Assembly (NCBI GenBank): GCA_036479435.1 | Contig: JAZGFI010000119.1 | Coordinates: forward strand, 1 to 44,329 | Reading direction: 5' to 3' | DNA: 44,329 nt | DNA from: Planctomycetota bacterium | Lineage (GTDB): Bacteria; Planctomycetota; GCA-002687715; DRQF01 | In this document: positions 24,401 through 39,637 of the stretch, piece after piece | How the letters are laid out: every line of letters starts with the position of its first letter | Position numbering within the stretch: the stretch's first letter is position 1 | Program-made: the position numbers and the translations under genes | Notes under the pieces: generated by a model | The model's input: only the letters and a program-made list of their open reading frames with translations | Database searches by the model: none | What the model was told of the DNA's origin: nothing

Positions 24401-27400
24401 CAGTGCAATCGCGTCATCATTGCGCCCCGCCACAACCAGGGGCATGGCCAAGGTCGCCATCTCGGCCACGCTGACTCGCGCGCCATCGCCGCCTTCAACT
24501 TTGCCCCCGGCCAACAAGGCGAGTCCATTCCTTATCGATTCGGGACGCCCACTCGCCGCGATCAAGTTGAGTGCAGAAGCGTTGTAGCCCCACCTCGCCC
24601 TAAAGCGAACGATCTCGGGCAACAGATTTTCGTCCTTCAGGAAAGACTGCAGCAGCTGTGCATCAACACGGTCGGCTCTTTCGAGCTGGCCATGGGCTAG
24701 AGCGATCCGACGGTAGAGCCGGGAGCGGTGCGCCAGCCGTGGGTAGCGGTCAAGTCGCTCACCGCGGTCCTCGCCAGCATCCATGACGAGCCGCAACTCG
24801 GCGTCCAGCTCTTTTCCCTGGTCGTCAAGAAAAACCAGGGCGTTCTCAAACGTGAGGGTGGACAACAGACCCTTGAGGATGAACTCCTTTTCGGAGTCGC
24901 TTTCCGTGACGTTGAGTTCGCGACGCATATAGGCCGGAATGCTCTCATCGATCTCTTTGTCTTTGCTCTTCGACTTTGAAAAGGGGCGTTTGTCGAGCAT
25001 GACTTTCGTGGCTCGAAGAAAAAGGCCCCGCGCGATCTCGTCGTACCCCAGCTTCTCGCGCATCTCCGCGACTCTTGTCAGCAAAGATAAATCGCTGGTC
25101 TCGACGGTCAGAATCCGCTCGTAGACTCGGATCGCTTCGTCGTCGTAACGCGCGGCCTCGAACGAGGCGGCGATCTTGCGTTGGAATGCCGCAAAGTCGG
25201 GAAGCTTGGCCGCCTGACTAAAAGTACGCGAGGCGTTCGCGACTTCTTGCTCGCGCAAAAAAGTCTCGCCAAGTTCCAAGTAGACCCCCGGGGGTACTAA
25301 CTCGCCTTGACCGAGAAGGCGCCGGCCGAACATCAGGTTTTGTTCCTTGAGGTCCAAAGAACTGGTTGATGAGGCCACGTCCTGCGTAACTAAGACCCCT
25401 CCGATGACAATGAAAGATGCAAATGCCGAGCGCACCTTCGGCTTCGTCATCGAAATGAGCTCGCGCAGCAAGTAAGTGCGTTGCTCGCCAGCAATGGGCA
25501 AAGCGGCTTTCAAAGCGCGCACCGCCGTCGCCTTGTCACCAAGTTCGTCAGAGAGATCGGCCGCCAATTGGAACAAGTAGAGCTTGTTGGGTCGACGCGC
25601 GATCCGTTCCAAGGTGATGCGGCGCGCCCACTCGATCAAGCGGTCCGGGGCACCTCTGTTCGTGCGACCATCCCGCATGTTGAGGATGCCGTCTATAGCT
25701 ATGGTGAAGAGGTCGTCGCGTTCTGCAGTCTCTGCCAGATACTGAAACATGGCGGCCGAGCGGTCAAACTGACCGAGGTCCTTCATGACATTCGACAACA
25801 ACAAGTAGTTGTCGATGCGGCCCGGATTGCGGGCGATGCCTCGCCGGTAGACCGCGATGGACTCCTTCCGCATTCCCGCCATTGCGAGCACACCAGCCTC
25901 AAACTCGTCGCTTGAGGTGCCGGCGTCCTCTCCCTTTAGACGGTCCAAAATCTCGCGGGCCTCTTGGCGTTGTCCACGCTCAAGCCGGCTCATGGCAAGC
26001 TGCCGGTAGTAGTCGGCGGCGTTTTCCGCATCGACTTCTATGAGTTTTTCGATCGTCTCTTCGTAGTTGAAGTAGTCAAGGCAAGTGAGATAAACGCGAG
26101 CTTTTTCGGCGAGGGTCTCGATGGGATTGCCGCTAGTCTGCTTCATGTACTCGTCGATAACGTCGGTAGCGGAGATCGCGTCTTTGACGCGGGTGTAAAT
26201 CCGCACCAACAAACCACTTTCGCGGTCGTTGGCTTCACCATCGGCCAGCCTCTTTTCGAGTGAAATGGCGATCTTCGCCAACTCGCCCAGACGCGCTGCA
26301 ATCGTCATCAGTCGCTCTTCGACGTACCGACGTCGAGGAATCGATTGAATCCTCTGCCACAGGTCCATCCAGCGCTTAAGGGCCTTATCTTCTTCGCCGA
26401 TGTCGGAGAGGAGCAAAGCCAGCTTCATCTCCATGTCGCCAGCGGTTCGCTCACCGCGCTCTTGGGATAGTCCCTCGAGGATCTCGACCGACCGCTTCTT
26501 TTTGCCCAATCGCTCGTAAGCGCCGGCCAAGTCCATGCGAAGGTCTTCTCCGCGGTCGAGAACTTTGGCGACTGCGTCGAGTTCCAATTCCGCAAGATCT
26601 AAGCGGCCGCGGCGAAAGAAAAGGTCAAAAAGGAAAAGGCCGGCGCGGGCTTTCTCCGCTCCAGTGCGAGCCGTCTTGCGAGCGAAACTTGCCGCGAGCT
26701 CGTCGAGGCCGAGGTTGCCTAGGGCATCGGCGGCAGCCAAGACGAGGTTGTCGTCTCCGCCGTCGTCGCCAAATCCATCCCAGACCGCAAGAGCGGCGGG
26801 TCGGTTTCCGCGTTCGAGATAAAACCTGGTCAGCCCCGTCCGCCATTCAATGTAGCGAGGTTCTTCGCTAATGAGCTTTTGATAAGCCCCTATGAGAGTC
26901 TCGTCTTCGCCGGTCTGCCGGCACATGTCGAGAAGCTCTCGACGCATGTCGACGGTAAAGGTCCCATCGCCCGAGTTCCTAAAAAGCCGCAAGGCCTCTT
27001 GGACCCGTCCCGTTTCGCGCAACAAGTCAATCCACACTCCGCGCGCTTCGTCGTCGAGCCCTTCCGTCTTTGCCAAAGTGTCGATCAAGCCATCAAGGTC
27101 GTCGGCACGGCGATAGCCTTCGACGAGAATGGTCAAGGCATAGCGGCGATCACGCTTTAGCTGTGCGGCCTCCACGGCGCGCCAACAGTAGCCCTGTGCC
27201 TTCTTCCAATCTTTGGCTTCGAGGGCCCATTCCGCGAGGCGAATGAGCTGCCGGTAGAGTTTCGAACCCTCTCCAGAAGTTACAAAGAGCTCCAGCGCAT
27301 CTTTTTGCCCCTCCTGAAGCGAGAGAATCATCGCCGCCTGATTGCGGAGGGTCTCAGATCGCGCGGCGCCTTTGGCGAACTCGGCCAAGGGCGACTTGGT

Positions 27401-27940
27401 TTTGTCATCGCCCTCTTTCGTCAACAGGGCGATACGAAGCAAGATGCGGTTCTTAAGTTCCACGTCCTTCATCAAGGACGCCAACTTCTTGTACTCAACC
27501 AAGGCGTCTTGGTCCTTGCCCGCCGCATCAAGCAGCTCGGCGCGCTGGCGACGGTCAGAAAGACTGATCGAGTCAGCTGCCAGCTTGCCGAGCGTCTCTA
27601 GAGCTGCCTCTTTCTCGCCAAAACGACGTAGGCACGCCGCCTGAAGTCGAATGAGGCGCGCGCGGCGAGTAGAACTGATTCCTGAGTCTCTCAGTTGCGA
27701 CTCAAAGGCGGCGGTGAGCGCATCGAGGTCACCGTGATGAATCATGCAGGCGTCAAAGACCGTCGCGAAATTCCGCCAGACCAAAAGCTCGCTCTTCAAC
27801 AATAGGTCTATTTCGATTCGGACTTCAGCGGCCAAGGCATCGGCCGGGGTCGCCTCCTCTTCTTGAGCGAAAGTCGAGGGCGCGAGGGCAAGCGCCAAAA
27901 AGCCCCAAAGAACTAGTTTCCGTCCAAGACTCGAAGACAT
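21482..27940 (-). CDS. Giant secreted TPR/helical-repeat protein (about 2150 aa), last gene of the MoxR operon
   Basis: Signal peptide MSSSLGRKLVLWGFLALALAPSTFA; TPR-like repeats throughout; ATG at 27940, 5 bp after the vWA gene stop. Confidence 0.82.
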   Translation of the reverse strand: MSSSLGRKLVLWGFLALALAPSTFAQEEEATPADALAAEVRIEIDLLLKSELLVWRNFATVFDACMIHHGDLDALTAAFESQLRDSGISSTRRARLIRLQAACLRRFGEKEAALETLGKLAADSISLSDRRQRAELLDAAGKDQDALVEYKKLASLMKDVELKNRILLRIALLTKEGDDKTKSPLAEFAKGAARSETLRNQAAMILSLQEGQKDALELFVTSGEGSKLYRQLIRLAEWALEAKDWKKAQGYCWRAVEAAQLKRDRRYALTILVEGYRRADDLDGLIDTLAKTEGLDDEARGVWIDLLRETGRVQEALRLFRNSGDGTFTVDMRRELLDMCRQTGEDETLIGAYQKLISEEPRYIEWRTGLTRFYLERGNRPAALAVWDGFGDDGGDDNLVLAAADALGNLGLDELAASFARKTARTGAEKARAGLFLFDLFFRRGRLDLAELELDAVAKVLDRGEDLRMDLAGAYERLGKKKRSVEILEGLSQERGERTAGDMEMKLALLLSDIGEEDKALKRWMDLWQRIQSIPRRRYVEERLMTIAARLGELAKIAISLEKRLADGEANDRESGLLVRIYTRVKDAISATDVIDEYMKQTSGNPIETLAEKARVYLTCLDYFNYEETIEKLIEVDAENAADYYRQLAMSRLERGQRQEAREILDRLKGEDAGTSSDEFEAGVLAMAGMRKESIAVYRRGIARNPGRIDNYLLLSNVMKDLGQFDRSAAMFQYLAETAERDDLFTIAIDGILNMRDGRTNRGAPDRLIEWARRITLERIARRPNKLYLFQLAADLSDELGDKATAVRALKAALPIAGEQRTYLLRELISMTKPKVRSAFASFIVIGGVLVTQDVASSTSSLDLKEQNLMFGRRLLGQGELVPPGVYLELGETFLREQEVANASRTFSQAAKLPDFAAFQRKIAASFEAARYDDEAIRVYERILTVETSDLSLLTRVAEMREKLGYDEIARGLFLRATKVMLDKRPFSKSKSKDKEIDESIPAYMRRELNVTESDSEKEFILKGLLSTLTFENALVFLDDQGKELDAELRLVMDAGEDRGERLDRYPRLAHRSRLYRRIALAHGQLERADRVDAQLLQSFLKDENLLPEIVRFRARWGYNASALNLIAASGRPESIRNGLALLAGGKVEGGDGARVSVAEMATLAMPLVVAGRNDDAIALLERIDFGVGDKTELDDLPMLVSVAAFLEVPDQVLTLCRRWLDMTVKHKTSSLYEVVESLLRASQTVLDQQQGESLIQYLVDKICKSPDKFSSFASRIPDLQKSLGITLLTAEQAEKLIESKLETSERSVYAIPRLLLMIDAEAQSTTLRKIWPKVKKTLRATFVLQLVPEFSYDIEPGYADLLIESFKAGMNDVERDRILESGVSSLAASSKFNVDLRLSLIDLIASKSSKSMSCQLAKAQIFVGDGRVVEGFALAKEPIKELLTMKNPGWESSYALDQALVVFRRTNFDELLALFDEVLKEGKNESLVLRRVTFLDGKVPASEILASLRQALGRFPKNVTIRQALQRRLNRGGYRRAALAELAKIAEIEPKKDQHKTALIRGWTAARNPVRALKLEREKAKKASEEAETSGGSNKKKPRERSTIRGVKKALDAGDTKTAHRMFHELWRRFPDRTSQYFRSSWAFSSFSRVPDLRWPKDRETDAETKVSRGGLPGFEPKTENRDKVAKRRSAYEVLAEHAFGAAEINRMLSTLGAESFSSSGAGEILKVKAKARVSRLGRERAIADILDADAKGRAGKLDYGILFAILESAEGDIDPKVEQSVDELVRVISPRDEGQTRRLARLYAALGKKDRAALLWRWSIAVAGDDNNRYGGISRELIDQIIAALDGEARIEVLEDIFRATAPSPEYYWGQDRHTTQVLKTWIEVLGPDATWERCTKTLEEIFVLGSAPRRGAAKIAAGLAARRGDIDLAMRYLEIGLLKLEFPQGLRPWLRIGFEDGGRLSNVELAELFPKGFEGWDDANAWLNAVSERIPKWIEEGRVDVERLFSLEAILALRFFEQGDEDRARSWLASVAKKAVGNAGRELWVVDLARQFGDEDRAWSIEKKLLTEDRLHLERLAEVISRWAAKDGKASALEVGERVAAWCQHPLLLDVLIQLSHELGREDRKQHWEECKQAGEAAKKELEESKSKA

Positions 27941-27945
27941 GGGTT

Positions 27946-30492
27946 TCACTCCGCGGCAGGACGATTCGCGCGGCGACGCCACGCGATATCGGCGAGATAA
28001 ACGAGTAAGGACAGCAACAAAAACCAGGGCCAGATCGGCTCGACGCGCAAGGGTGCCGAGCCTTTCGACCAGACGAGGTCACTAACATTGCTGGGGTCGG
28101 CGGCGGCCGCGAAGCCGCCGGTAAGGCGAGCGATGGCTTCCAGGTCGAGCGCTCGGGACGGGTCGACCATGAGTTCAGGAGTTTGGTCAGAAGCGGGAGC
28201 ATCGACGATGCGAATCGTGGCGAGCACATTTCGCCCTCGCCCCTCGGCCTGGCGACGCGCCGCGGCCATTACAAACACCGGCTCTTGAGGATCTACGACA
28301 GTTTCCGCTCGCCAAATCCCCGCCGTAAGCTGACTGAACTCGAAGGCCTCGCCGAGCTGGCCTGCGGCGTCGCAGCGCCAAGCCTTCGGTGCCGGTGCGG
28401 TGGCTTCGCGGCGCTCTGCGTACAGAAATACGCGATCACGTCGGCGTTCGAGTCGGAAGCGGTGGGAGCCAAGGTCGGTCGCCGCACTCCGTTCCAGCAC
28501 GCGAGCCAAGAAGGGACCGTATCCCGACCAATCTCGCCAGGAAGCCGTTCCCGGCCCGCTCGGCTCCGTGGTCATCGCCGTGACGCGCCCTAAGCCGTGG
28601 CGCCAGGTGGCCAAGATCGGGTGCGACTCGCGCGCGGTCTCCAGCAGCAAGCGTGCGCCGGGGCGCAGTTTTGTTTCGACATAGCCGCTGAGGTCCGGCA
28701 CCGCACGGGGATCGACATCGCCCCACCAACCGGTACCTCCCTTTGCTTTCACCGCGTGGCGGCCCGGACGATAGGCCGGCAAGTGGGAAGTCGAAGGTTG
28801 CTTCAAAATGACTTCGGGTAAATTGAAACGGTCGGAAGCGTGGTAAAAGCGACCTTTCCCCCAGTCCGCCAATTGAACCAAAAAGTCACTGTGGCGGCCC
28901 GGACCAACCAAAACGGTTGAAACCGTAACCCCATCTTTTGCCATCGAGCGCAATAAGGGCTCAAAAGCCCCGGTCTCCACCCCGCCGTCGGTCAGAATCA
29001 AGACGTGCTTGTAGCGCGTCTGCACATTCTTCATGCCGTAAAAGGCCTCTTCGATCGCGGGCAGGATCACCGTCCCGCCGCCAGCATCGAGGCGATTCAG
29101 CGCGCGCTGAATGTTGATGGCATTCGCCGCGGACTGAAGCGGCGCGGCCCAGCGCTTCGCACCGTAAAACTCAACGATGCCGACCTTGTCGTGCGGCAAC
29201 AGTCGGCGAATAGCGAGGCGTGTCACTTCTTTGGCCAGCACGATACGCTGCCCAGCCATCGATCCCGAAGTGTCGATGATGACGGCAAGGGCCGTGCTAG
29301 GGTCTTTCTTTTCCTCTTTCTGAACGGATTCGACCGGCAGAACTTCGGATAGGGCCGTCCGGTGATAGCCGCCCGGACCAAAAGAAGCGCTGCCGCCCGA
29401 GACCAAAAGACCGGTGCCTTGGTTTTGCACTGCGCTCACCAGGGATCGCTGTTGCGTATCTGATAGCGTCGTCGCCGGACGGTCATCGAGAACGACGAGG
29501 TCGTAGGCGGAGAAGTCGGTTGTCGCCTTCGTGCCGAGTTTACCCTGATCGGCGTCATCGACTTTGAAGGAAGAACCCAAAAGATCGCCCAAGGTCTTGG
29601 CGCCGCCACGCACGCGCTGGCCAAGGTAGAGGATCGACCGGGGATCTTGCACCGCGACCGGGCGACTCAAGACATTGTTGGTCTCAAAGCTGTCCTCGCC
29701 GTCGGCGAGAACCACCTCGACATCAAGCGCAAAGAATCCAGCTAAGGCTGGCTCGAACTCAACGACCTGAGTATGCCGACCCGACGCGCTGAAAGGCACA
29801 GATTCTGCGACTAACACTCCGTCGAGCAAGACTCGCAAAAACGCGGTTTGCCCGGCGCCGATGACGTCAACATTCAGTCGAGTGCTCTGCCCCACTCGCA
29901 GCTCTTCTTCGAACTCAGCGGCCACCACGCGTAAATCGCCGACCATGCCCGGGCGGCGCAAGGTGTTGAGACGAAGGCCGCGAGCACTGATCTCTTGGCC
30001 GGCACGCCCCCAATCATGGGAGGTACCAAGACCGTCGCTAATAAGCGTTAAGCGCCCGGACGACCCCTCGGGGATCGCAAGCTGAGCAAGCCTCAGCGCA
30101 CGCCCCAAGTCGCTGCCATGCCGCAGGAACTGTCGCTCGTCGAATTCAGCGGCGTCGACCGAGACATCCGGGCCCGCGCCGACGACGATGAGATGACTTT
30201 TGACCTTAACCTCGCCGTCGCGGCGCCGTTGCTCGCGGCTCTCGGCAAAGGCCTCCATCAAAGAATCCCTGTTGCTGTCAACATGAACGCTCGCGGAGCG
30301 ATCCAGGATCACAACATCGTGAGTCGGCGCAGAGTCACCAAGGTTGACCGGGCGGGCCAAAGCCACCACCACTAAGGCGAGAGCTAAACTGCGCAGACTG
30401 GCCTGAACGCGATCTTTCGCGCGGCGAGGCAAAAACCAGGGTAGCGGCAACAAGAGCCACAGCCACAGGAACTCGGGGTGTAAGAAAATCAC
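27946..30492 (-). CDS. vWA-domain membrane protein with glutamine-amidotransferase-like region
   Basis: N-terminal F.HP..LWL TM segment, two MIDAS motifs (DRSAS, DTSGS) with SDG/TDG, YDLVVLDD..GGSASFGPGGY..LPV, HPILATWRHGLGR, and a C-terminal TM helix. Confidence 0.88.
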   Translation of the reverse strand: MIFLHPEFLWLWLLLPLPWFLPRRAKDRVQASLRSLALALVVVALARPVNLGDSAPTHDVVILDRSASVHVDSNRDSLMEAFAESREQRRRDGEVKVKSHLIVVGAGPDVSVDAAEFDERQFLRHGSDLGRALRLAQLAIPEGSSGRLTLISDGLGTSHDWGRAGQEISARGLRLNTLRRPGMVGDLRVVAAEFEEELRVGQSTRLNVDVIGAGQTAFLRVLLDGVLVAESVPFSASGRHTQVVEFEPALAGFFALDVEVVLADGEDSFETNNVLSRPVAVQDPRSILYLGQRVRGGAKTLGDLLGSSFKVDDADQGKLGTKATTDFSAYDLVVLDDRPATTLSDTQQRSLVSAVQNQGTGLLVSGGSASFGPGGYHRTALSEVLPVESVQKEEKKDPSTALAVIIDTSGSMAGQRIVLAKEVTRLAIRRLLPHDKVGIVEFYGAKRWAAPLQSAANAINIQRALNRLDAGGGTVILPAIEEAFYGMKNVQTRYKHVLILTDGGVETGAFEPLLRSMAKDGVTVSTVLVGPGRHSDFLVQLADWGKGRFYHASDRFNLPEVILKQPSTSHLPAYRPGRHAVKAKGGTGWWGDVDPRAVPDLSGYVETKLRPGARLLLETARESHPILATWRHGLGRVTAMTTEPSGPGTASWRDWSGYGPFLARVLERSAATDLGSHRFRLERRRDRVFLYAERREATAPAPKAWRCDAAGQLGEAFEFSQLTAGIWRAETVVDPQEPVFVMAAARRQAEGRGRNVLATIRIVDAPASDQTPELMVDPSRALDLEAIARLTGGFAAAADPSNVSDLVWSKGSAPLRVEPIWPWFLLLSLLVYLADIAWRRRANRPAAE

Positions 30493-30507
30493 GCGAGCCG
30501 TATCTCC

Positions 30508-32340
30508 TTAGGGAATCCGACCGAGGGAATACAAAGACCATTCCAACAAGAGCAGCCCCAAGATCAAAAACAGCAACCAAGTCAAAAGGTTGCCGCTGGC
30601 ACCCGGCGCATCAAAGTCAGCGCCCAATGCAGCCGAATCCCCAACCGGTGCTAACGAAGACGGAGCGAACAAAGACACAGAGAGATCATTCGGTCCAGGG
30701 GGTGAATCCGAGAGTCTTGAAATTTGGTCCTCGCCAAGTTCCGCGGCGTTGAGCGAACGGTAGTCGCCCGCGGCGGGCGGCAGAAAGGTCGTCCCCGCCG
30801 CCACCAAGATCTCTCCGTTGTCGTCGCGAAAAGCAGCGAGCCCCTTGGACTCGGCGACACCTTGCGCCAAGAGCGGAGCTTCGCCCGCGGCGACTCGGGC
30901 CGGAAAAGCCTCGATCTTCGCCAGCCATCTCATCGACTTTGCGACGAACAAGGGAAAGCCGCGCGACTCGCGAAAGTCATACTCGTCGCTGATCAGTTCC
31001 CACCACATGGACAGACCGCGACGGTCGCCGGGACGAGCGCCAACTTCGATGCTGCGTCCCATGGATGTCGCCAGCTCGCTGGCATCGATCTGGTCCAATC
31101 CCAGGGCGGTGAAAGAGCTGAGAAGAGCTTGCTGAGAATCCAAATCGCCATCGTGTTGCACGAGAATGGCCTCAGTTTGTCGGTCCGCAGGGCTGAGCTC
31201 GAAAAACGGCAGGTCGAGAGCCAAGCTTTCGCCCGCAATTCGGACGACCACGTCGGCATTGAGACTTGCCGATTTTCCCGCCGCAACGACAACGACATCC
31301 AGAGCCGTGTCTGTCTCTAGGACTAGTCGAAGCGCCGCGGGGAGTTTCGCGGAGACGGCAACCTTGATCCGCGTTCGCTGCGGCAATCGAAGACGCGCTC
31401 GACTTCCTCGCGGGTCACTTGAGCCCTTGCGAGCGGGATACCCGACGTCACCAAGAGTTGCTTCAAGCAATTGACCCCGCGCCAAGACGTCCCTCAAGTA
31501 GATCCAGGCGCGATCCCCCTGCTGCCCTTGCTCTTGAACGTAGGTTAGGGGCTGACCGTCGAGCCACAGTTTCAGATCCGAGATTCCGCGATCGGCAGCG
31601 ATATCACCGCGCACTTCAAGGTAAACGTCGACCCGGTCAAAGGCACCCGATTGCGCCGGACTCAGGCCTATCGTCGTGATGCCGAGCCCCCGCGATGGGC
31701 TGTCGTTGCGTGACATGATGGCGTGAATCGAGCTGCCCGGAGGCAACAAGTCCAGACGCGCCGGGTTAAGCGCCACTGAACTTGCCACGAGACACACCGG
31801 TCGCGCATCGGCCTCGACGGCCAGAGCATCGGCAAGGCACTCCATGACCCGAGACGGAGATCGAGCCACCAAAAGGCCTTTGGCGCGTTCTGCGAACAAA
31901 CTCGATTCCTCGCCGGGTGCCAACAGGGTTCGCGTGCGATCGCCAACCCAAAGCACGCGCCTTCGGTCTTGAGGGAGCGCCTTTATTTGTTCTGCCACCG
32001 CACGATAGGCCCGATCGAAATCGTCGCCCTGCGCCATGTCGGCCGAACCGTCCCAGATCAGCAAATACTGCGGCCCATGGTCATCGCTAGCTCGAGGCTC
32101 TGAGAACACGAACCACATCAACAGGCAAAGACCCAGGATGAACGCGTAGGCCCAAGGGTGCCGAAACCGTTGCATCAAGACTCGCGCGCGCGAGGCATCG
32201 ATCGCCTCGCGCCAAAACAAAGTCGTCACGACCTTGAGGGGACGATGACGGACACGGAGCCGTTGCAAAAAGAACAGGCCAGCCGCTAAGGCTGCTCCGC
32301 CGAGCAAAAACCCCGGCCAAGATAAAAACTGCATGTTCAC
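30508..32340 (-). CDS. BatA-like N-terminal domain protein with degenerate vWA
   Basis: BatA-type start (FLS..FLL...FFLQRLRVR..VVTTLFW), DGSADM degenerate MIDAS, GFPLFV, and C-terminal LLLLEW TM motif. Confidence 0.8.
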   Translation of the reverse strand: MNMQFLSWPGFLLGGAALAAGLFFLQRLRVRHRPLKVVTTLFWREAIDASRARVLMQRFRHPWAYAFILGLCLLMWFVFSEPRASDDHGPQYLLIWDGSADMAQGDDFDRAYRAVAEQIKALPQDRRRVLWVGDRTRTLLAPGEESSLFAERAKGLLVARSPSRVMECLADALAVEADARPVCLVASSVALNPARLDLLPPGSSIHAIMSRNDSPSRGLGITTIGLSPAQSGAFDRVDVYLEVRGDIAADRGISDLKLWLDGQPLTYVQEQGQQGDRAWIYLRDVLARGQLLEATLGDVGYPARKGSSDPRGSRARLRLPQRTRIKVAVSAKLPAALRLVLETDTALDVVVVAAGKSASLNADVVVRIAGESLALDLPFFELSPADRQTEAILVQHDGDLDSQQALLSSFTALGLDQIDASELATSMGRSIEVGARPGDRRGLSMWWELISDEYDFRESRGFPLFVAKSMRWLAKIEAFPARVAAGEAPLLAQGVAESKGLAAFRDDNGEILVAAGTTFLPPAAGDYRSLNAAELGEDQISRLSDSPPGPNDLSVSLFAPSSLAPVGDSAALGADFDAPGASGNLLTWLLFLILGLLLLEWSLYSLGRIP

Positions 32341-33236
32341 GGGCGATAACTCCCTGATTCAAAGAGCGTCGCGAGCTGCGGAAGAACGGCTTGTTCGACG
32401 TCGAGTTGCAGCAATCCGATTTGGCGGCTCTTGGCGAACTTCGTCAACCCCGTCTCAAAGCGCCGGTAGGATTCGGCGTAGGCCTGAAGCACCGCCGCCG
32501 TCGCCGAAACGTCTTCGGCGGCACCGGTTTCGCAGTCGATGAGTTGCAAGTCTCCTTGCAGCTCGGGCCGCGCATCCGATTTTCGAACGAGCTGCACCAA
32601 AAGCAAGCGGTGACGCAGGGTCTTCAGAGCCTTCGTGACGGCCTCGATCCCTCCCGGATCGAAGAAATCCGAAATGACGACAACCAAACCTTCCCGCAAT
32701 TTCATGGCGTTGAAGGTGCGAAAACTCGAGGCGAAATCGGTGCTGCCCTGCGGTTCAACTGCACTCAGGCGTTCCGCAACGCGCATGAGTCTCCCCTTTC
32801 CGGCCTGGGGGCGCAGGGCCGTCGTCAAGCTTTCGCCGAAGGGGAAGATCCCCACGCTGTCGTGTTGGTTCAGTGCAATCGAAGCCAAAGCCAAGGCCGT
32901 GCGGAGACCTGCCTTGATGCGCGGCGGCTCTTCGAGAAAAAGACTCAGCGAACAATCGGGCAAAAGGTAGACCGGCAGGTCTTCGAACTCTTCAAAGAGC
33001 TTCAAAAACACCCGCCCCAAGCGACGGTAGATGTTCCAGTCAATAGCGCGAAAATCGTCGCCGGGCGAATAGGGCCTAAAGTCGCGAAACTCGATGCCGC
33101 TCCCAAGGTCTTTCGATCGTTGTTCGGCGTGCCGCCCCCCGCGCGCCACACGGCCCGCCAGAATCCGAAGCTGCGCGAGCGAAGCGAGGAACTCGGGATC
33201 AAAAAGATCCTTTGGACTAAGAGACGTTGCAGGCAT
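32337..33236 (-). CDS. DUF58 domain protein (MoxR-associated)
   Basis: GSGIEFRDFRPYSPGDDFRAIDW, DCSLS, VVISDF. Confidence 0.92.
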   Translation of the reverse strand: MPATSLSPKDLFDPEFLASLAQLRILAGRVARGGRHAEQRSKDLGSGIEFRDFRPYSPGDDFRAIDWNIYRRLGRVFLKLFEEFEDLPVYLLPDCSLSLFLEEPPRIKAGLRTALALASIALNQHDSVGIFPFGESLTTALRPQAGKGRLMRVAERLSAVEPQGSTDFASSFRTFNAMKLREGLVVVISDFFDPGGIEAVTKALKTLRHRLLLVQLVRKSDARPELQGDLQLIDCETGAAEDVSATAAVLQAYAESYRRFETGLTKFAKSRQIGLLQLDVEQAVLPQLATLFESGSYRP

Positions 33237-33295
33237 GTCTAAGGGCTCGGTATTCCTGAGGGGCTAGTTAATTTCGTTCTGGGCGCATGCCGGTG

Positions 33296-34309
33296 TCAAT
33301 CTTGAAGTGGCTTGACCTGATCCAAGACGGCGTCGATGATTCGGTCGGTCGTCACTCCGTCGGCCTGACCCTGAAAGTTCACGATAATGCGGTGCCGCAA
33401 CACATCGTGGGCTGCTGCACGCAGGTCTTCGCAGCTCACGGCGAATCGACCCGCGAGAAGAGCCTTGACCTTACCTGCCAACACCAAGCCCTGCGCACCG
33501 CGCGGACTGGATCCTAAAGCAACGTTGTCGTTGACGAGGCTCGGCGCGAATTTGCTGTTGGGTTGGGTCGCGACCACAAGATGAATGGCGTGCTCTTGAA
33601 CCTGCGAGGGGCAAGGGACCGAACGCACGATACCGCGCATCCGGAGGATTTCCTCCCCGCTGGAGACCGGCTTCACAACCGCGTCTTCGGTTCCTGTCGT
33701 GCGATCAAGAATTGCGGCGTAGTCTTCGATCTCGGGGTAGCCCACGATGATCTTGAACAAGAATCGATCGAGCTGAGCTTCGGGCAGCGGGTAGGTGCCC
33801 TCTTGTTCGATGGGGTTTTGAGTGGCCATGACGCAGTAGGGCGCGTCCAAAGCAATCGTCCGTTTACCAACCGTGATCTGTTGCTCCTGCATCGCCTCGA
33901 GCAAGGCCGACTGCGTTTTGGGCGTCGCGCGGTTGATCTCATCGGCGAGCACGAGATTCGCCACCAAGGGACCTTCTTGAAAACGAAGCTCATGGCCGCC
34001 GCCTTCCGTGTCCACGAGTACAGAGGTGCCCTGAATATCAGCCGGCATCATGTCGGGGGTGAACTGAATCCGCGAAAAGCGCAGATCCAGGGCTTCTCCC
34101 AAGGAGCGGACTAAAAGGGTCTTGCCGAGGCCGGGCACGCCCTCAAGCACCACGTGGCCACCCGCTAAGAGCGCGGTCAAAACCGACTCAACCACGACTT
34201 GCTGGCCGACAATGACCTTGCCGACTTCTTCGCGAATCTTGTCGTAGACCCCGCGAAACTCCGCCACCGATTGCTTGGCGTCTTTCACGCCCGATGCACT
34301 CTTGCTCAC
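33296..34309 (-). CDS. moxR: MoxR-family AAA+ ATPase
   Basis: EGVPGLGKT, RIQFTPDMMPADI, LADEINRATPKTQSALLEAMQE, ATQNPIEQEGTYPLPEAQLDRF, GSSPRG. Confidence 0.95.
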   Translation of the reverse strand: MSKSASGVKDAKQSVAEFRGVYDKIREEVGKVIVGQQVVVESVLTALLAGGHVVLEGVPGLGKTLLVRSLGEALDLRFSRIQFTPDMMPADIQGTSVLVDTEGGGHELRFQEGPLVANLVLADEINRATPKTQSALLEAMQEQQITVGKRTIALDAPYCVMATQNPIEQEGTYPLPEAQLDRFLFKIIVGYPEIEDYAAILDRTTGTEDAVVKPVSSGEEILRMRGIVRSVPCPSQVQEHAIHLVVATQPNSKFAPSLVNDNVALGSSPRGAQGLVLAGKVKALLAGRFAVSCEDLRAAAHDVLRHRIIVNFQGQADGVTTDRIIDAVLDQVKPLQD

Positions 34310-34379
34310 CTTCTGTTTCCTTTCATCCGAAAAACCGAAGCGCGCTTACGCTGGCGGCCTCTGCCCATAGGGCTACTCT

Positions 34380-35894
34380 TCAATCAAGCTGTCCGCGCAC
34401 GCGGAGGTAGTAGTTTTTTACGAGGGTCCGCATCCAAGGCAAAAGATCGGGGCTGGCGACGTGACCGGCGGGAGCCTTGCGTGGCGACCTTTTCTGCGCG
34501 CCGATACGGCTCACCTGATCTGGCTTGGGCTCAATGCGTTCTTGAGTGATCTTGGTGCGGCCCGGACTGGGGCGGCCTTTGATGTGATCGGGGATCGGCA
34601 CGCCCAGCACCAAAGTCGCAACGCCTCGAGATTTCTTTTGCTCTGAAGGCCCACCGCGGCCATTCGCGTCTGGGTTTTTCTGATTGCCAAAACCAATGCC
34701 GAGGTCGCGATTCACCGGAGGCCTTCGGTCCCGCAACGAGGGCTGCAGACCACCGCGAGCTTCGTTTTCCTCGTCTTCGTCTTCCACTTCGGGCTCGGTG
34801 TCGAGGTCTTCTTCGTCCTCAGAAGTCACTTGGTCTTTGCTCGACCACTCCGACGCCGCAGGACTTTTGTTCGATCCGGTGGCACTCCCCTTGCCCGCAG
34901 TAGCGCCTGACTTTTCATTCTCGGGCTTCTTGTCGCTGGAAGCCTCAGGAGACTTCTTTTTGGGCTTCTTGGTCTTTTTCTTCTTGGCCTTTTTTTCGGG
35001 ATTGATGCTCGCTTGGGCCTGTTGGCTCGCCGCCCCTTGTGACTGACTCGAACCACTCGATGCCGAAGCATCCGAGGAACTGCCGCTACCGGTGGCACCT
35101 TGAGTTTCCTTGACGTCGTCGGCGAGGCTTTGGTCTTCTAGGCGCGCCTTCGGCTCGCCTTTGCGCGCCCCAGGTGCTTCGCGTGTCGACTCCGACGGGT
35201 CTTCATCGACGAGAGTCTCGCGGTCATCGTCATCCTCGTCGTCTTTTGCGGCATCGGTTTCGATTTCGGCGATGGTGCGGGCTGCTGCAAGGTCATTGGA
35301 CCGCCCCGCTTTTTCGTTTCGATAGGGAAAAAACACGCAAGCCATCGCCAGCAAGATTCCCAGACAAGCGGCGACTAAGGATGCCCGCGAGTATCTCCAT
35401 TGCGGATCTGCGGGTGCCAAGGGCGCCGACTTAGCTCGCTCAAAGTGCTCAGCGGCATCGGCGATAGCCGCGTCCATGAAGGGGCTGCGCACTTTGGTCT
35501 CAAGGAACTCTGCGGCGGCACCCATGCGGTCGTGAAGTTGGAGCTGATCGTCAACAAAAGCGAGCGCCTGGGGCCGACCAACCGGCCGCCGACGAGCCGC
35601 CATCACCACCGTCAGCAACCAAGCCAAGGGCGGCAGAAACGTGGCGCCAAAAATGGCCCATCCCGGCAAACGCGGCGGTTCCGCATCACCCACCCAGCCC
35701 ATGCCGAGGTAAAGCAGATAAAAAGCGGGAAAGACCAAGAGCAAGAGCATGGACGCGCCAAACTCGTCGCCCAAGGCACGTCGACCACGTTCACTGCGCA
35801 AGACGTCTTGGGCGCGCTGTGAGATCAGTTCAAGGCTGGACTCGGCATCTGCCTCCAAGCTCCCAGCACCAGAATCTGGCTGCGGCGCGTCCAT
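34380..35894 (-). CDS. Hypothetical membrane protein with low-complexity charged C-terminal half (MoxR operon)
   Basis: Three TM segments, a L.DR..AA.EF motif, Ser/Gly-rich, Lys-rich and acidic tracts, and C-terminal VKNYY; starts 2 bp after the upstream stop. Confidence 0.78.
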   Translation of the reverse strand: MDAPQPDSGAGSLEADAESSLELISQRAQDVLRSERGRRALGDEFGASMLLLLVFPAFYLLYLGMGWVGDAEPPRLPGWAIFGATFLPPLAWLLTVVMAARRRPVGRPQALAFVDDQLQLHDRMGAAAEFLETKVRSPFMDAAIADAAEHFERAKSAPLAPADPQWRYSRASLVAACLGILLAMACVFFPYRNEKAGRSNDLAAARTIAEIETDAAKDDEDDDDRETLVDEDPSESTREAPGARKGEPKARLEDQSLADDVKETQGATGSGSSSDASASSGSSQSQGAASQQAQASINPEKKAKKKKTKKPKKKSPEASSDKKPENEKSGATAGKGSATGSNKSPAASEWSSKDQVTSEDEEDLDTEPEVEDEDEENEARGGLQPSLRDRRPPVNRDLGIGFGNQKNPDANGRGGPSEQKKSRGVATLVLGVPIPDHIKGRPSPGRTKITQERIEPKPDQVSRIGAQKRSPRKAPAGHVASPDLLPWMRTLVKNYYLRVRGQLD

Positions 35895-35896
35895 CC

Positions 35897-38239
35897 CTAT
35901 TTCTTCTCCGATTTTGGCATGGGCTTGATGTCGACTTGAATGGCCTGCAGGACTTCGCTCGTCGTGCTATCCCTCACGAAGGCGACGACCGCGACCTGAC
36001 GGGGATCAATTTTCATCGACAGCCGTGAGCAGGCCCCGCCGCCCTCCTCTTCAAAGTCTTCAAGAAAGACGGAATTGTCTTCGCTGACGTCGGCGAGTTT
36101 GCGCTCGAAGTCGAAAACCATGACGCCCATTTTTGGCTCAAAGTCAATACCGCCGAGTTCCGGCGTTAGCTCGTCGCGGGCGACCATGCGGTGAACGACG
36201 ACCTTCCCTTTGCCGGGATAAAGGACGCCGCGCTCCACCAATACAACCTGTAACACCGTGTTTTCGCGGCTGGGTCCGGTCACGGTGATGCGACCGGTCA
36301 GTTTTTCGCCTTCGAGTTTTCCCTCTAAGCTCATTTCGTACTTCGAGGGTTCTTTGAGATGCTGGTAGACAGTTTTCTTCGCAGCCTCGTAGAGCGCTTC
36401 GGCGTCACGCCAGCGTCCCGCGCCGCGTGACTGGTCTTTGCCGTTGATGAGGAAGACCCCCGGGCCGCCGATCCCGTAGTACTTCTGAGCTTGCAGTGAG
36501 GCCGCGTTTTGAAGCGCCGAAGGCTCGGGTTGCGGCAGGTGATAGGTAATGACGGCGACCGTTTGGCGATCGAAATGACTGAGGATGCCCTCGCTGGCCA
36601 TCGTGCCGCCTTCGGTAAGACTCATCCAGGTTTCGCCACGCTTGCGGCCGAGGTGAGCGTTGATGAAATGCTCGACCAAGACGCAGCGATTTGAGCTGTT
36701 TTTGTCCGTCGCTTTGAACTTCGTGGCCGCAGAAAAATTGTAGGTCTTACCCTGCACCATGCGATCGACGAGGTCTACCGAGAGCGGCTCGCCCTTCATC
36801 TTCAATTGCAAGCCTTCCAGGGCAACAACTGCTTGAGGACCAGATTCCGGTTGGATCACGGCCATGATGTAACTGGAAAAGGCGCGGCGGTACCGTTTTT
36901 CTTGCTCGTAGAAGCGGCCGAGATGAAGCTTGATGATGCCGTCGTTGGGAAGACCAAAGGCCGCGGAAAGCAGGTGTTCCCAAGCCGCACGGCCTTCGCC
37001 GTCTTCGAGCAGCAGTTCGCCGACTTTCGCGTGCAGCTTGTGGACCGATTCCACGTAGCGATCCTTGCGACCCTGCTTGATGCCCATCCGACCGGCGCGA
37101 ATGGCCAGCTTCGGGCGACGCCCGGTCAAAAGCATCTGCATCGTCTTGAGCGCTTCAGTGGCGCGAAGGTCTTCGATGCGCGTTTTGTCCATCCATTGCA
37201 GCATGCGCTCGATGTCTTGGTCTGAAGTCGATTTGTCGTCGATCGTCAGCAACATGAGCTGCTCGGCCGCCTCTCTGGCGAGCCGCGACGAGGGATAAGT
37301 GTCAAGAGCCTTCAGCAAGGGAGTCGCTTCTTCGGTCACCATCGCCTTGAAGTAGGCGAGGTCTGCTTTCGGAAACACCGCCGGAGACGTTCGGGTGAGG
37401 CGCGCAAAAAGATTGACGCGATCGACCTCGACCCGGTAACGCATCAAAAAACCAAGGCCCGTGACACCAAGTGGTCGATCGGGATGTACCTGGATTAGTT
37501 CACTGGGGCGCCAAGCGACGTCTGCTGACAAATCCGCGCCGCGCAGAGCAACCTTGCCGATGTTACCCGCGGGTCGATTCAGCTCGCCGCAAATATCTTG
37601 ATCGATCACGCTGTCGATGCGGGAGGAGCCCAGGGCCAAGACTGCGGTGCTGTTGTCCTCAAGTCTCACGGGCATCCAAGCGAGATCGTTCACCAAAGAA
37701 ATCGAACTTGTCGTAGCGCCTTCGACTTCCTCCGGAGGCCCGTCGACTTTTTCGCGCGCCAAGCGCAAATAGATGAGGCCAGCGGCGAGATCAAAAGTGA
37801 TGTGGTAGTCGCGTAGAATATCGAGACCGATCGTGCCGATGCAAGCGGTCTCGCCGAGCTCTTTGGAGTAGAGCTTGCTGAAGTCGTCGAGCGCTTTTTG
37901 GTCGGGATGCTCGCGGCGCGCGATCTGGATATTGAAGCCAGGCAGATACACGGTGATCAAATGCCCGCCCTGGTCGACTTTCAGACCACCGCTCCCCGCG
38001 GCCTGGTTGTGGAGTTCTAGGCCGCAAGCGCGGTCGTACTCAATGAAGAGGTTCGCCGGAATGCGGCGCGCGGGCGTCGACAGTTCGCAACGCAATACGA
38101 GCTTGTCACCGATGACGGTGACGGGCAGGCGTGCGACTTGGCCCGCCGTCGCCACGGGAGCTGCCGTTTCGCCTTTTTGCGACCGCAAAGGGCCAGCGAA
38201 AATCGCCAGGACCGCCGTCGCCAACAGGAAGAATCTCAT
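35897..38239 (-). CDS. Secreted multidomain protein: tandem degenerate retropepsin-like domains, TPR region, thioredoxin/Omp28-like C-terminus
   Basis: Signal peptide; IGTIGLDIL..YHITFD and LGVTGLGFL..YRVEVD retropepsin-type motifs; TPR-like HLGRFYEQ; VLVEHF and YHLPQPEPSAL...FLING...HRMVAR. Domain calls are by eye. Confidence 0.65.
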   Translation of the reverse strand: MRFFLLATAVLAIFAGPLRSQKGETAAPVATAGQVARLPVTVIGDKLVLRCELSTPARRIPANLFIEYDRACGLELHNQAAGSGGLKVDQGGHLITVYLPGFNIQIARREHPDQKALDDFSKLYSKELGETACIGTIGLDILRDYHITFDLAAGLIYLRLAREKVDGPPEEVEGATTSSISLVNDLAWMPVRLEDNSTAVLALGSSRIDSVIDQDICGELNRPAGNIGKVALRGADLSADVAWRPSELIQVHPDRPLGVTGLGFLMRYRVEVDRVNLFARLTRTSPAVFPKADLAYFKAMVTEEATPLLKALDTYPSSRLAREAAEQLMLLTIDDKSTSDQDIERMLQWMDKTRIEDLRATEALKTMQMLLTGRRPKLAIRAGRMGIKQGRKDRYVESVHKLHAKVGELLLEDGEGRAAWEHLLSAAFGLPNDGIIKLHLGRFYEQEKRYRRAFSSYIMAVIQPESGPQAVVALEGLQLKMKGEPLSVDLVDRMVQGKTYNFSAATKFKATDKNSSNRCVLVEHFINAHLGRKRGETWMSLTEGGTMASEGILSHFDRQTVAVITYHLPQPEPSALQNAASLQAQKYYGIGGPGVFLINGKDQSRGAGRWRDAEALYEAAKKTVYQHLKEPSKYEMSLEGKLEGEKLTGRITVTGPSRENTVLQVVLVERGVLYPGKGKVVVHRMVARDELTPELGGIDFEPKMGVMVFDFERKLADVSEDNSVFLEDFEEEGGGACSRLSMKIDPRQVAVVAFVRDSTTSEVLQAIQVDIKPMPKSEKK

Positions 38240-38405
38240 CGCTTCTCCGGGATAATTCGCGAGCAGAAAAAGAGCCTAGCACACGGGCCTAGATGTTTGA
38301 AGATCCAAGGAGATTCTAAGATCCACAAGCACTCTTGAGACGTCCAAGCTTCGGGCCGATTTCAGACCATTGGGGATCTTTGTGAATCCGCGACAGTTTG
38401 TGCGC

Positions 38406-38439
38406 AAAAAAAGGCCCGATCGCTCGACGACCAGGCCTT
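38406..38439 (-). terminator. Rho-independent terminator
   Basis: On the minus strand, GGCCTGGTCG-TCGAG-CGATCGGGCC (10-bp stem with two G-U pairs) followed by T7. Confidence 0.8.
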
Positions 38440-38470
38440 CCATATTAGCTCAAGATGACCAAGGCTGCGG

Positions 38471-39637
38471 TCAGCGCCGTTTGCCCTCGACTTTTCCAAA
38501 GGCCCAGTTTTCGGTTTCCATCACAATCTTGAGTTCAACGTTGCTCGGTACGCTCACGGCGACCGGGACCATTCCCGATCCTCATCAGCTTCCCGGGAAG
38601 TACGCCAGCGCGATCTCCTTGCCAGTCTTGTTGTTCAAGATCGTAAACTTCGGCGATTTGCCGAGTGGGCTCCAGTCGTAGTATTCCTCGCCGAGATCGC
38701 CCCAATACCAAACTCTGTCCGGAGACAGGGTGACCTTGGAGGACTCTCGCGCGTAGTCAAAATTGGCCTTGACGGGGCCGCCCCAACCAATGGGAGTCTT
38801 TTGATCCGCCGCGACCAGGATGCTTTTGGACTTACCGCTGCGGAACTTGACGACGTTCTTGCCGATGCCGAGCTGACCGTTGATCAACTTGTAGGGCCCG
38901 GCGGGCACTTTCAGACCTTCCTTGGCACGCGACAGCTCAAAGGAGTAGCGGCCATCGCTGCTTTTGACGACGGCTCCCAAAAGCTTGGCTTTTGATTGAT
39001 GGCCGGAAGCGACATCAAGGATGCCTTGTGCGCCTTCAAAGGCCTTGGTGCGCATCTCGCTGCCATCTTTCGCCACGCTGAGTTTAAATAGCGCGCCGTC
39101 GATGTTGACAACCTTCGACAGAAAAGAGGCAAAACGTCCCCGACCAATGACCATGGCGTCCTCGCCGAAGTCGTTGAAACGTCCGTTGTTGTTTTGATCA
39201 ATGAGTTGAATCTTGGTTTTCCCAATTTTGCCCTGGCGCACATGCGCGGGGCGAAAGGCCCAACCTTTGGGGCTTGGCACCACGCGAAGGGCGTAGGCAG
39301 CTTGGTTTTTGCCTTCCAGCGTGATGAGGGCGCCTTCGTTCTCGACGGTAACGTCCATCTTGCCGTCGCCATCGACGTCGATTCTCAAAGACGTGCCTTC
39401 CGGCTTAGCGCCGAAGAATTGGCCCAGCGTGTTTTGAAAGTGAAAACCTGTACCGACGAGCGTCAATTGCTCCTGCGGCAACACCAGCTTCCAACTCCTG
39501 AGGGTCTTGTGTTTAAGGGGGATCGCGCCGGACTCGATAGGGGCCGCGTTGGCAGTCCGGGTGTAGGCCAGGTCTTGCGCCGGCAAAAGCCCCATCCATA
39601 GACCGCTGCAGAGCAGAGTCAAAAGCAACTTGTTCAT
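38471..39637 (-). CDS. Secreted hypothetical protein; 350 aa if it stops at 38585, or 388 aa if the tandem TGA-TGA is read as Sec-Sec
   Basis: Signal peptide MNKLLLTLLCSGLWMGLLPA and DxDGDG / DQNNNG Ca-binding-like motifs. After FPGS come TGA (38587-38585) and TGA (38584-38582), then 36 open codons (GSGMVPVAVSVPSNVELKIVMETENWAFGKVEGKRR) to TGA at 38473-38471. The CDS itself is solid; the read-through is inferred. Confidence 0.6.
38546..38580 (-). promoter_or_regulatory. Candidate SECIS-like hairpins downstream of TGA-TGA
   Basis: GATCGGGA-ATGG-TCCCGGTC (38580-38561) and the overlapping alternative CGGTCGC-CGTGA-GCG(T)ACCG (38565-38546). Confidence 0.4.

Follow-up and report, generated by a model that had tools for sequence, protein, structure and literature searches.

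The minus-strand gene at 38471..39637 of the window, the 44,329-nucleotide stretch of Planctomycetota DNA analyzed here, has a reading frame that continues past two adjacent TGA codons and belongs to what is almost certainly a selenoprotein family, the selenium incorporation itself being predicted from sequence. The UGA codons are likely decoded as selenocysteine (Sec, U), because the homologs settle the case: Cys and TGA interchange at the site and the tail behind it stays in frame. The copy in the window very probably carries a predicted Sec-Sec pair. With good probability, both UGAs are decoded by SelB on one SECIS hairpin to give an all-beta protein of 388 residues that is predicted to be exported. 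The decoding mechanism would be the known bacterial one, and both the family and its tandem use of UGA appear to be uncatalogued in the literature searched.

The elements at and around the site are:
38471..39637, minus strand: full gene, 388 residues if both TGAs encode Sec; from an all-beta Planctomycetota (seleno)protein family absent from the catalogues searched
39578..39637, minus strand: predicted Sec-type signal peptide, residues 1-20, recognized by eye; holds the gene's only Cys codon
38585..38587, minus strand: TGA 1, residue 351; a Cys codon in most homologs
38582..38584, minus strand: TGA 2, residue 352; TGA in 87/90 loci, Cys in 3/90 and in full-length database homologs
38474..38581, minus strand: tail of 36 sense codons, conserved in frame; 43% identity to homologs vs 41% for the body
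38570..38572, minus strand: internal ATG, codon 356, with GAGGA upstream; unconserved (family consensus Phe) and rejected as a separate start
38471..38473, minus strand: third TGA, the true stop; TAA or TAG in 40/90 homologs
38403..38441, minus strand: terminator-like hairpin with U-tract, from a folding computation

ATG 39637 starts a 350-aa ORF (39637 to 38588) whose C-terminus, AYFPGS, is followed by TGA TGA, 36 sense codons and a third TGA, all in agreement with the first-pass annotation of this DNA. The annotation had also placed a terminator about 30 bp past the third TGA, and a 15-pair hairpin (38441-38409) running into a U-tract indeed begins 30 nt on, with -22.6 kcal/mol, z -4.2 and 0 of 200 shuffles as stable; a simple promoter/terminator scan listed no promoter, and this hairpin was likewise unlisted there. 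The N-termini of homologs are hydrophobic as well. An assembly error was ruled out by contigs from three runs of three studies, which span the whole stretch and are identical to it, with no other letters or gaps; two of the three runs may be the source of this DNA and one (X4) lacks that mark. Among RNA datasets, none was listed as holding the stretch.

Taken by itself, a TGA-TGA followed by an open tail is weak evidence, because 14 of the 39 ORFs ending in TGA-TGA (among the genome's 3044 crude ORFs of 200 aa or more), the window gene included, stay open for at least 36 further codons, and because 30 of 611 control tails reach the coding score of this tail (0.45, vs 0.46 for the gene body). 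It is the conservation among homologs that carries the case.

Homologs and the Cys/TGA site

The family comprises 231 representatives at E up to 1e-30, and its named homologs belong to the Planctomycetota. Of 113 loci, 98 had a readable site and 90 were kept as non-redundant; left out were 3 without a match, 6 cut by contig ends, 1 distant paralog, 8 duplicates and 5 distant homologs whose site lacks TGA, two of these having a single Cys. The site motifs of the 90 loci were CU (69), TU (7), UU (5), SU (3), CC (2), GU (2), SC (1) and AU (1), i.e., an in-frame TGA is present in 87/90, with the tail kept in frame. The commonest contexts are G-C-U-G and S/T/N-C-U-G. Rather than ending at the site, an outcome that the first-pass annotation had allowed for, homologs continue in frame through the 36-aa tail, whether the site reads Cys-TGA, TGA-TGA or Cys-Cys. 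The Sec-Sec reading proposed in that annotation is supported for this copy, with the refinement that Cys-Sec is the family norm and Sec-Sec a recurrent minority (5/90). These natural Cys-Cys, Cys-Sec and Sec-Sec versions allow sulfur and selenium chemistry to be compared.

Within the genome's class, 20 of 23 genomes gave a match, and TGA was found in 27 of the 28 matches, the exception being cut by a contig end. Identity beyond the hairpin described below was 33%, and differences at the three codon positions amounted to 0.52, 0.39 and 0.58, least at the second. Two loci, L057 and L019, are identical at the site. A distant paralog of 768 aa in the same genome (L026, G000:C27) carries a lengthy extension at its N-terminus, and its site contains neither Cys nor Sec.

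Database proteins show how such genes have been annotated. At the site end 189 of 232 entries, 129 of these in Cys; another 21 extend across the tail, and the remaining 22 are fragments of other kinds. Most of the entries that stop at the site probably lack part of their last domain. Among the 20 tail-spanning proteins listed of the 21, nine have Cys-Cys, five one Cys and six, all distant, no Cys and no Sec there. The alignment with one of the database proteins, P0161, runs gap-free through FPGS-CC-G. In another, P0050, the body is fused to the tail with loss of some 14 residues, the site among them, possibly an assembly artefact or a deletion. The ends of four more, P0018, P0070, P0080 and P0144, hint at additional UU members.

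Sec machinery and the in-frame hairpin

The first-pass annotation had suggested a check for the Sec machinery, and all four components, tRNA-Sec (selC), SelA, SelB and SelD, were found in the genome (92% complete), each above its family's cut-off; the SelD gene carries an in-frame TGA of its own. ARAGORN returned 44 tRNAs, with tRNA-Sec (SeC) as the sole one bearing a UCA anticodon. A genome-wide reassignment of TGA was excluded, because TGA is the commonest stop (1385/3044 crude ORFs) and the only UCA tRNA found is tRNA-Sec.

38546..38565, minus strand: SECIS hairpin, 7-pair stem with one bulge, loop CGUGA at 38558-38554; from folding, conservation and covariation

This hairpin spans nt 17 to 36 past the second TGA; measured to the loop, its distances from TGA 1 and TGA 2 are 26 and 23 nt. 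Third positions of codons 358-361 are 96-100% fixed; the body columns (77) average 59% and peak at 81%. In 30 hand-picked sequences the upper three pairs hold throughout and the middle pair covaries (GC 17, AU 9, UA 4; score 0.399), a value as high as this occurring in 0 of 500 shuffles and slid controls giving at most 0.138. One lower pair fails in 16 of the 30, because pairing there differs in the other subfamily. A loose test finds the upper stem intact in 77 of 82 single-TGA genes and in all five UU genes, and three Cys-only loci pass it as well; in the two divergent GU loci the hairpin is absent. For single-TGA genes the spacer to the loop measures 23 nt (71 genes), 20 nt (5) or 26 nt (1); UU genes combine 26+23 or 23+20 nt.

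According to the available part of the published bSECIS model (PMC13188914), the loop has 3-9 nt with a G in position 1-2, the stem 4-16 bp, the spacing is 16-37 nt and the MFE at most -7.5 kcal/mol. For both UGAs the hairpin falls within all four of these constraints (CGUGA, 7 pairs, 26/23 nt, -9.1 kcal/mol), and the spacers of the other family members likewise stay inside the 16-37 nt range. Alone it is not unusually stable (z -1.08), and in a 53-nt context a competing hairpin beats the SECIS fold; the ribosome would partly open this competitor.

A scan of the genome for TGA plus hairpin gave 86 candidates, many of them surely false. We hand-picked 18 others than the window gene by eye for selenoprotein-like motifs (UxxC, UxxxC, CU); their loops lie 17-31 nt from the UGA, where the filter allowed 14-32, and six of the 18 share the loop start CGUGA with the window gene. 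They are located on G000 contigs C263, C211, C290, C279, C96, C109, C146, C124, C97, C294, C220, C295, C274, C262, C163 and C46 and include TlpA-like, HMA-like and other proteins, as labeled by eye. This suggests a large selenoproteome in this genome.

Tandem TGA codons and their decoding

The five UU loci are the window gene, its paralog on contig C103, both paralogs of genome G272 and one locus in G345; SelA is present in all three genomes.

G000:C103:139392-140490 (L025), plus strand: paralog that likewise has TGA-TGA; it carries a separate SECIS (loop GGUUC) and stops at TAA

In a FastTree tree built from the alignment of the part before the site, the five loci stand apart, each among single-TGA relatives. 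UU may have arisen independently only two to three times, because the DNA flanking the site is similar in four of the five loci, which come from two genomes of a single family. TGA takes the place of the Cys codon in the window gene and in L033; the pair of L025 and L061 lies one codon later, at the ancestral Sec and Gly positions. The UU tails are without decay: that of the window gene scores 0.54 against the consensus, equal to the median of 54, and L061 differs from its closest relative L020 beyond the hairpin by 8 synonymous and 5 replacement codons. GGA follows the last TGA in four of the five UU genes (window:38582-38579 and other UU loci) vs 5/82 single-TGA genes, a bias that could reflect shared ancestry or a context preference.

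Tandem TGA codons also occur in a second, unrelated family:
G000:C55:7257-8114, plus strand (L136:2758-3615): unrelated exported protein with signal peptide, Q-U-U and Gly-rich linker, found by scan

In the C55 gene, TGA-TGA comes directly after the signal peptide and is followed by 256 open codons and a hairpin. The protein has no Pfam match, and its later region looks thioredoxin-like by eye. At the mature N-terminus, the 27 readable of 30 loci comprised UU (7), CU (7), UC (6), single U (6) and CxxU (1). We dropped the idea that UU is a trait of two genomes only, as the second family has UU in seven genomes; two of these seven have CU in the all-beta family, and G272 has CU in the second family. 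Tandem decoding appears to be the economical reading in this phylum, because a double stop in the second family would leave only a signal peptide. On contig C75 (G000:C75:12411, minus strand), a lipoprotein ends in TGA-TGA-x4-Cys-Lys, followed by hairpins.

For the window gene we regard the following course as highly likely. SelB would bind the CGUGA loop with UGA 1 in the A site, 26 nt away, and, after one translocation, would bind again for UGA 2, now 23 nt away, serving both codons in turn from the same loop; failure at either UGA would yield a truncated product with an incomplete last domain. Counterpoints to Sec-Sec are that UU is found in only 5/90 loci and that only one single-TGA gene has a 26-nt spacer. 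Furthermore, the available part of one report describes Sec insertion in E. coli as inefficient (PMC8659212); two successive insertions would therefore multiply an inefficient step. As bacterial Sec insertion depends on the distance between UGA and hairpin, one hairpin for two UGAs makes this spacing rule directly testable, and the gene offers a template for making diselenide proteins.

Read-through with only one UGA decoded as Sec, the other being misread as Cys or Trp by a near-cognate tRNA or skipped, is improbable. A single hairpin for two codons, the rarity of the 26-nt spacer in the family and the competing hairpin, which could mask the SECIS at UGA 1, would all fit such a scheme, but no other tRNA with a UCA anticodon was found in the 92% complete genome, and both spacers agree with the bSECIS model and with the 17-31 nt range of the 18 hand-picked candidates. 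Moreover, if Cys were required at the site, one would not expect TGA to become fixed repeatedly, given that TGC is available.

Still less probable is that TGA 1 arose by nonsense mutation from the ancestral Cys codon (TGC to TGA) and left the copy truncated or dead, even though a single base change suffices, UU is rare, TGA is used most often as a stop and double stops of the TGA-TGA type are common. Against this stand the occurrence of UU in both paralogs, in this genome as well as in G272, the conservation of tail and SECIS, and two UU genes whose second TGA replaces the relatives' Gly and thus is no Cys-to-stop change. In the second family, moreover, stops would reduce the product to a signal peptide in 7/27 loci.

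Separate translation of the tail as a 33-residue peptide from ATG 38572, which the first-pass annotation had considered, is scarcely credible: the ATG is present with GAGGA 6 nt upstream, and the GGA bias would suit such a start, yet a start codon lies within six codons past the last TGA in only 2/5 UU genes (and 20/82 single-TGA genes), the Cys-Cys homologs are single chains, and a peptide without a signal sequence presumably could not join an exported domain.

Structure, neighbourhood and relation to known systems

38474..38776, minus strand: predicted C-terminal beta-sandwich, tentatively Fn3/Ig-like, residues 288-388, bearing the U-U loop; from AlphaFold2 and fold comparison
39338..39379, minus strand: DxDxDG loop, residues 87-100; motif in 74/90; weak FG-GAP_3 match below cut-off, E 0.013
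39158..39199, minus strand: second loop, DxNxNG-type, residues 147-160, with invariant D147 and G152; 83/90

The structure of the read-through protein was predicted by AlphaFold2 from 70 read-through sequences in which Cys replaced Sec. The model (pLDDT 95.3, pTM 0.90) is all-beta, with no helix of at least four residues. The tail, whose part in the fold the first-pass annotation had asked about, forms the three last of the eight strands listed for residues 288-388, and the UU pair falls in a loop that connects strands (block pLDDT 85). No Cys is left in the mature protein; a stop at TGA 1 would therefore leave neither a chalcogen nor a complete last domain. The two DxDxDG-type loops we take, judging by the motif, to be of the predicted Ca-binding type.

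Residues 288-388 align with Fn3/Ig-like domains at Z 6.0-6.8 over about 80 residues with an rmsd of about 3 A, scores below the level at which relatives can be told from a common arrangement. No match to the whole-protein fold was found, the best Foldseek TM-score being about 0.2. Since the N-terminal domain was barely covered in the fold searches, no new fold is claimed. A PDB sequence search returned nothing usable (best match E 0.0017, an antibody chain). The model lacks a thioredoxin fold with a helix-capping motif, and no Trx-clan model of Pfam or NCBIfam matches. In line with the first-pass annotation, which recognized no selenoprotein family, no Pfam or NCBIfam family scored over its cut-off, the read-through protein matching no NCBIfam family at E up to 0.1. 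The family adds a non-thioredoxin, all-beta scaffold, exported by prediction, to the selenoproteome.

Mammalian thioredoxin reductase carries a Gly-Cys-Sec-Gly arm, a vicinal Cys-Sec flanked by small residues. The family's commonest motif resembles it in both respects; unlike that arm, however, the site of the window protein is an internal beta-sandwich loop rather than a C-terminal extension, and the protein is no flavoenzyme and is predicted to be exported.

Closer in annotation history are SaoL, SaoB, SaoC and HgcA, for which the available part of the source describes a CU motif, database truncation at Cys and Cys-Cys homologs (10.1101/2022.07.06.499078). They share with the window family the vicinal Cys-Sec, the truncated records, the Cys-Cys homologs and the homology that resumes past the UGA, whereas the window family has no NCBIfam model match, a predicted exported all-beta scaffold and a Sec-Sec variant, the latter not reported in that part of the source. 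Adjacent Sec residues in print are, as far as we searched, confined to the algal PDI_e with its GUGUU motif, stated in the accessible text to be the first selenoprotein with two consecutive Sec (PMC7539508). PDI_e likewise has two consecutive Sec, but it is eukaryotic and PDI/thioredoxin-like, with no bacterial homolog found according to the same text; eukaryotic SECIS elements lie in the 3' UTR, in contrast to the position-dependent in-frame hairpin that would serve both codons here. Table 1 of PMC13188914 covers 119 prokaryotic families and holds CU motifs, no UU and no identifiable match, some of its rows being without a motif. Planctomycetota go unmentioned in the available portions of deep-Sep (PMC12013277), Haft and Gwadz, and PMC13188914. 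The literature listings searched contained no natural bacterial Sec-Sec protein; the groundwater candidate lists cited in PMC13188914 could hold the family.

Downstream of the gene lie:
35897..38239, minus strand: conserved neighbour, 780 aa, exported judging by its N-terminus; in 46/48 loci of the window gene's subfamily
21482..35894, minus strand: cluster of a 504-aa protein, MoxR AAA_3, DUF58, a 610-aa protein, a vWA/GATase1-like protein and a 2166-aa protein, from profile matches

The 780-aa neighbour occurs in only 1/28 loci of other subfamilies. It gives a weak match to an Omp28-related selenoprotein model (22 bits vs a cut-off of 200) and has neither a CxxC nor a TGA of its own. In 9 longer loci the 504-aa gene is next after the 780-aa gene; the 2166-aa protein has weak TPR matches. 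With MoxR AAA_3, DUF58 and vWA genes in a row, the downstream genes form a MoxR-DUF58-vWA cluster that resembles Bat-like clusters in its gene types; the terminator-like hairpin intervenes between gene and cluster. In the available part of PMC3557215, Bat proteins are proposed to reduce the periplasm, and a bat deletion in Leptospira had no oxidative-stress phenotype.

Five loci (L050, L101, L105, L106 and L110) have tails that run into thioredoxin-type (ResA/TlpA-type) sequence. In the two of these fusions that were scanned, ResA was the best match, below cut-off. In L101, WATSC replaces the usual first Cys position. A Cys no more than about 20 residues from the site occurs in eight of 13 single-TGA members other than CU. 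Some members lack any Cys close to the Sec, L062 having none in the stretch read.

Given a Sec-Sec pair, we favour, at about an even chance, a periplasmic redox site recycled by TlpA-type proteins, because of the thioredoxin-type fusions and the nearby Cys in 8/13 members without an adjacent one. Sec351-Sec352 would sit on an exposed Gly/Ser loop and cycle between selenol and vicinal diselenide, with a Cys-Sec selenosulfide or Cys-Cys disulfide in relatives; TlpA/ResA-type thioredoxins would re-reduce the oxidized pair, and the site would serve the 780-aa neighbour and, by way of a possible link, the MoxR-vWA cluster. Taken jointly, these steps are evenly balanced between right and wrong. Counting against this picture are the members that lack a Cys close to the Sec, the six distant homologs with neither residue, the intervening terminator-like hairpin, the rarity of the 780-aa neighbour in other subfamilies and the Leptospira result.

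That the pair instead binds a soft metal (Hg, Cu or an organometal) we consider rather unlikely. The site is an exposed loop of a predicted exported protein, and the available text of Haft and Gwadz proposes a metal role for the SaoL, SaoB and HgcA families, which are marked by CU and CC dipeptides; the NCBIfam models of these three families do not match, however, neighbour clustering, a comparison of clusters rather than of individually annotated genes, shows no recurrent metal-resistance or transport gene, and the thioredoxin-type fusions favour redox. More unlikely again is a beta scaffold acting as a periplasmic sensor or adhesion module with the selenium pair as redox switch. Its fold neighbours are Fn3/Ig binding domains, but a Z below 8 says nothing on function; two database proteins, P0214 and P0219, carry the domain behind two zf-HC2 fingers and a hydrophobic segment, an anti-sigma-like layout, but these fusions are distant and their TGA is without SECIS (L085, L091).

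Returning to the redox site, a wider picture can be offered tentatively, at somewhat less than an even chance: Planctomycetota would routinely decode UGA-UGA via one in-frame SECIS, placing vicinal diselenides on exported proteins, and the all-beta family, unlike catalogued selenoproteins, would act in the periplasm as a selenium-based redox relay serving a MoxR-vWA assembly system, with a natural CC/CU/UU series.

In L085 and L091, an in-frame TGA lies near the site and the family SECIS is absent. Near the end of the window, a gene of the phage-integrase family is found at window:41712-42818 on the plus strand.
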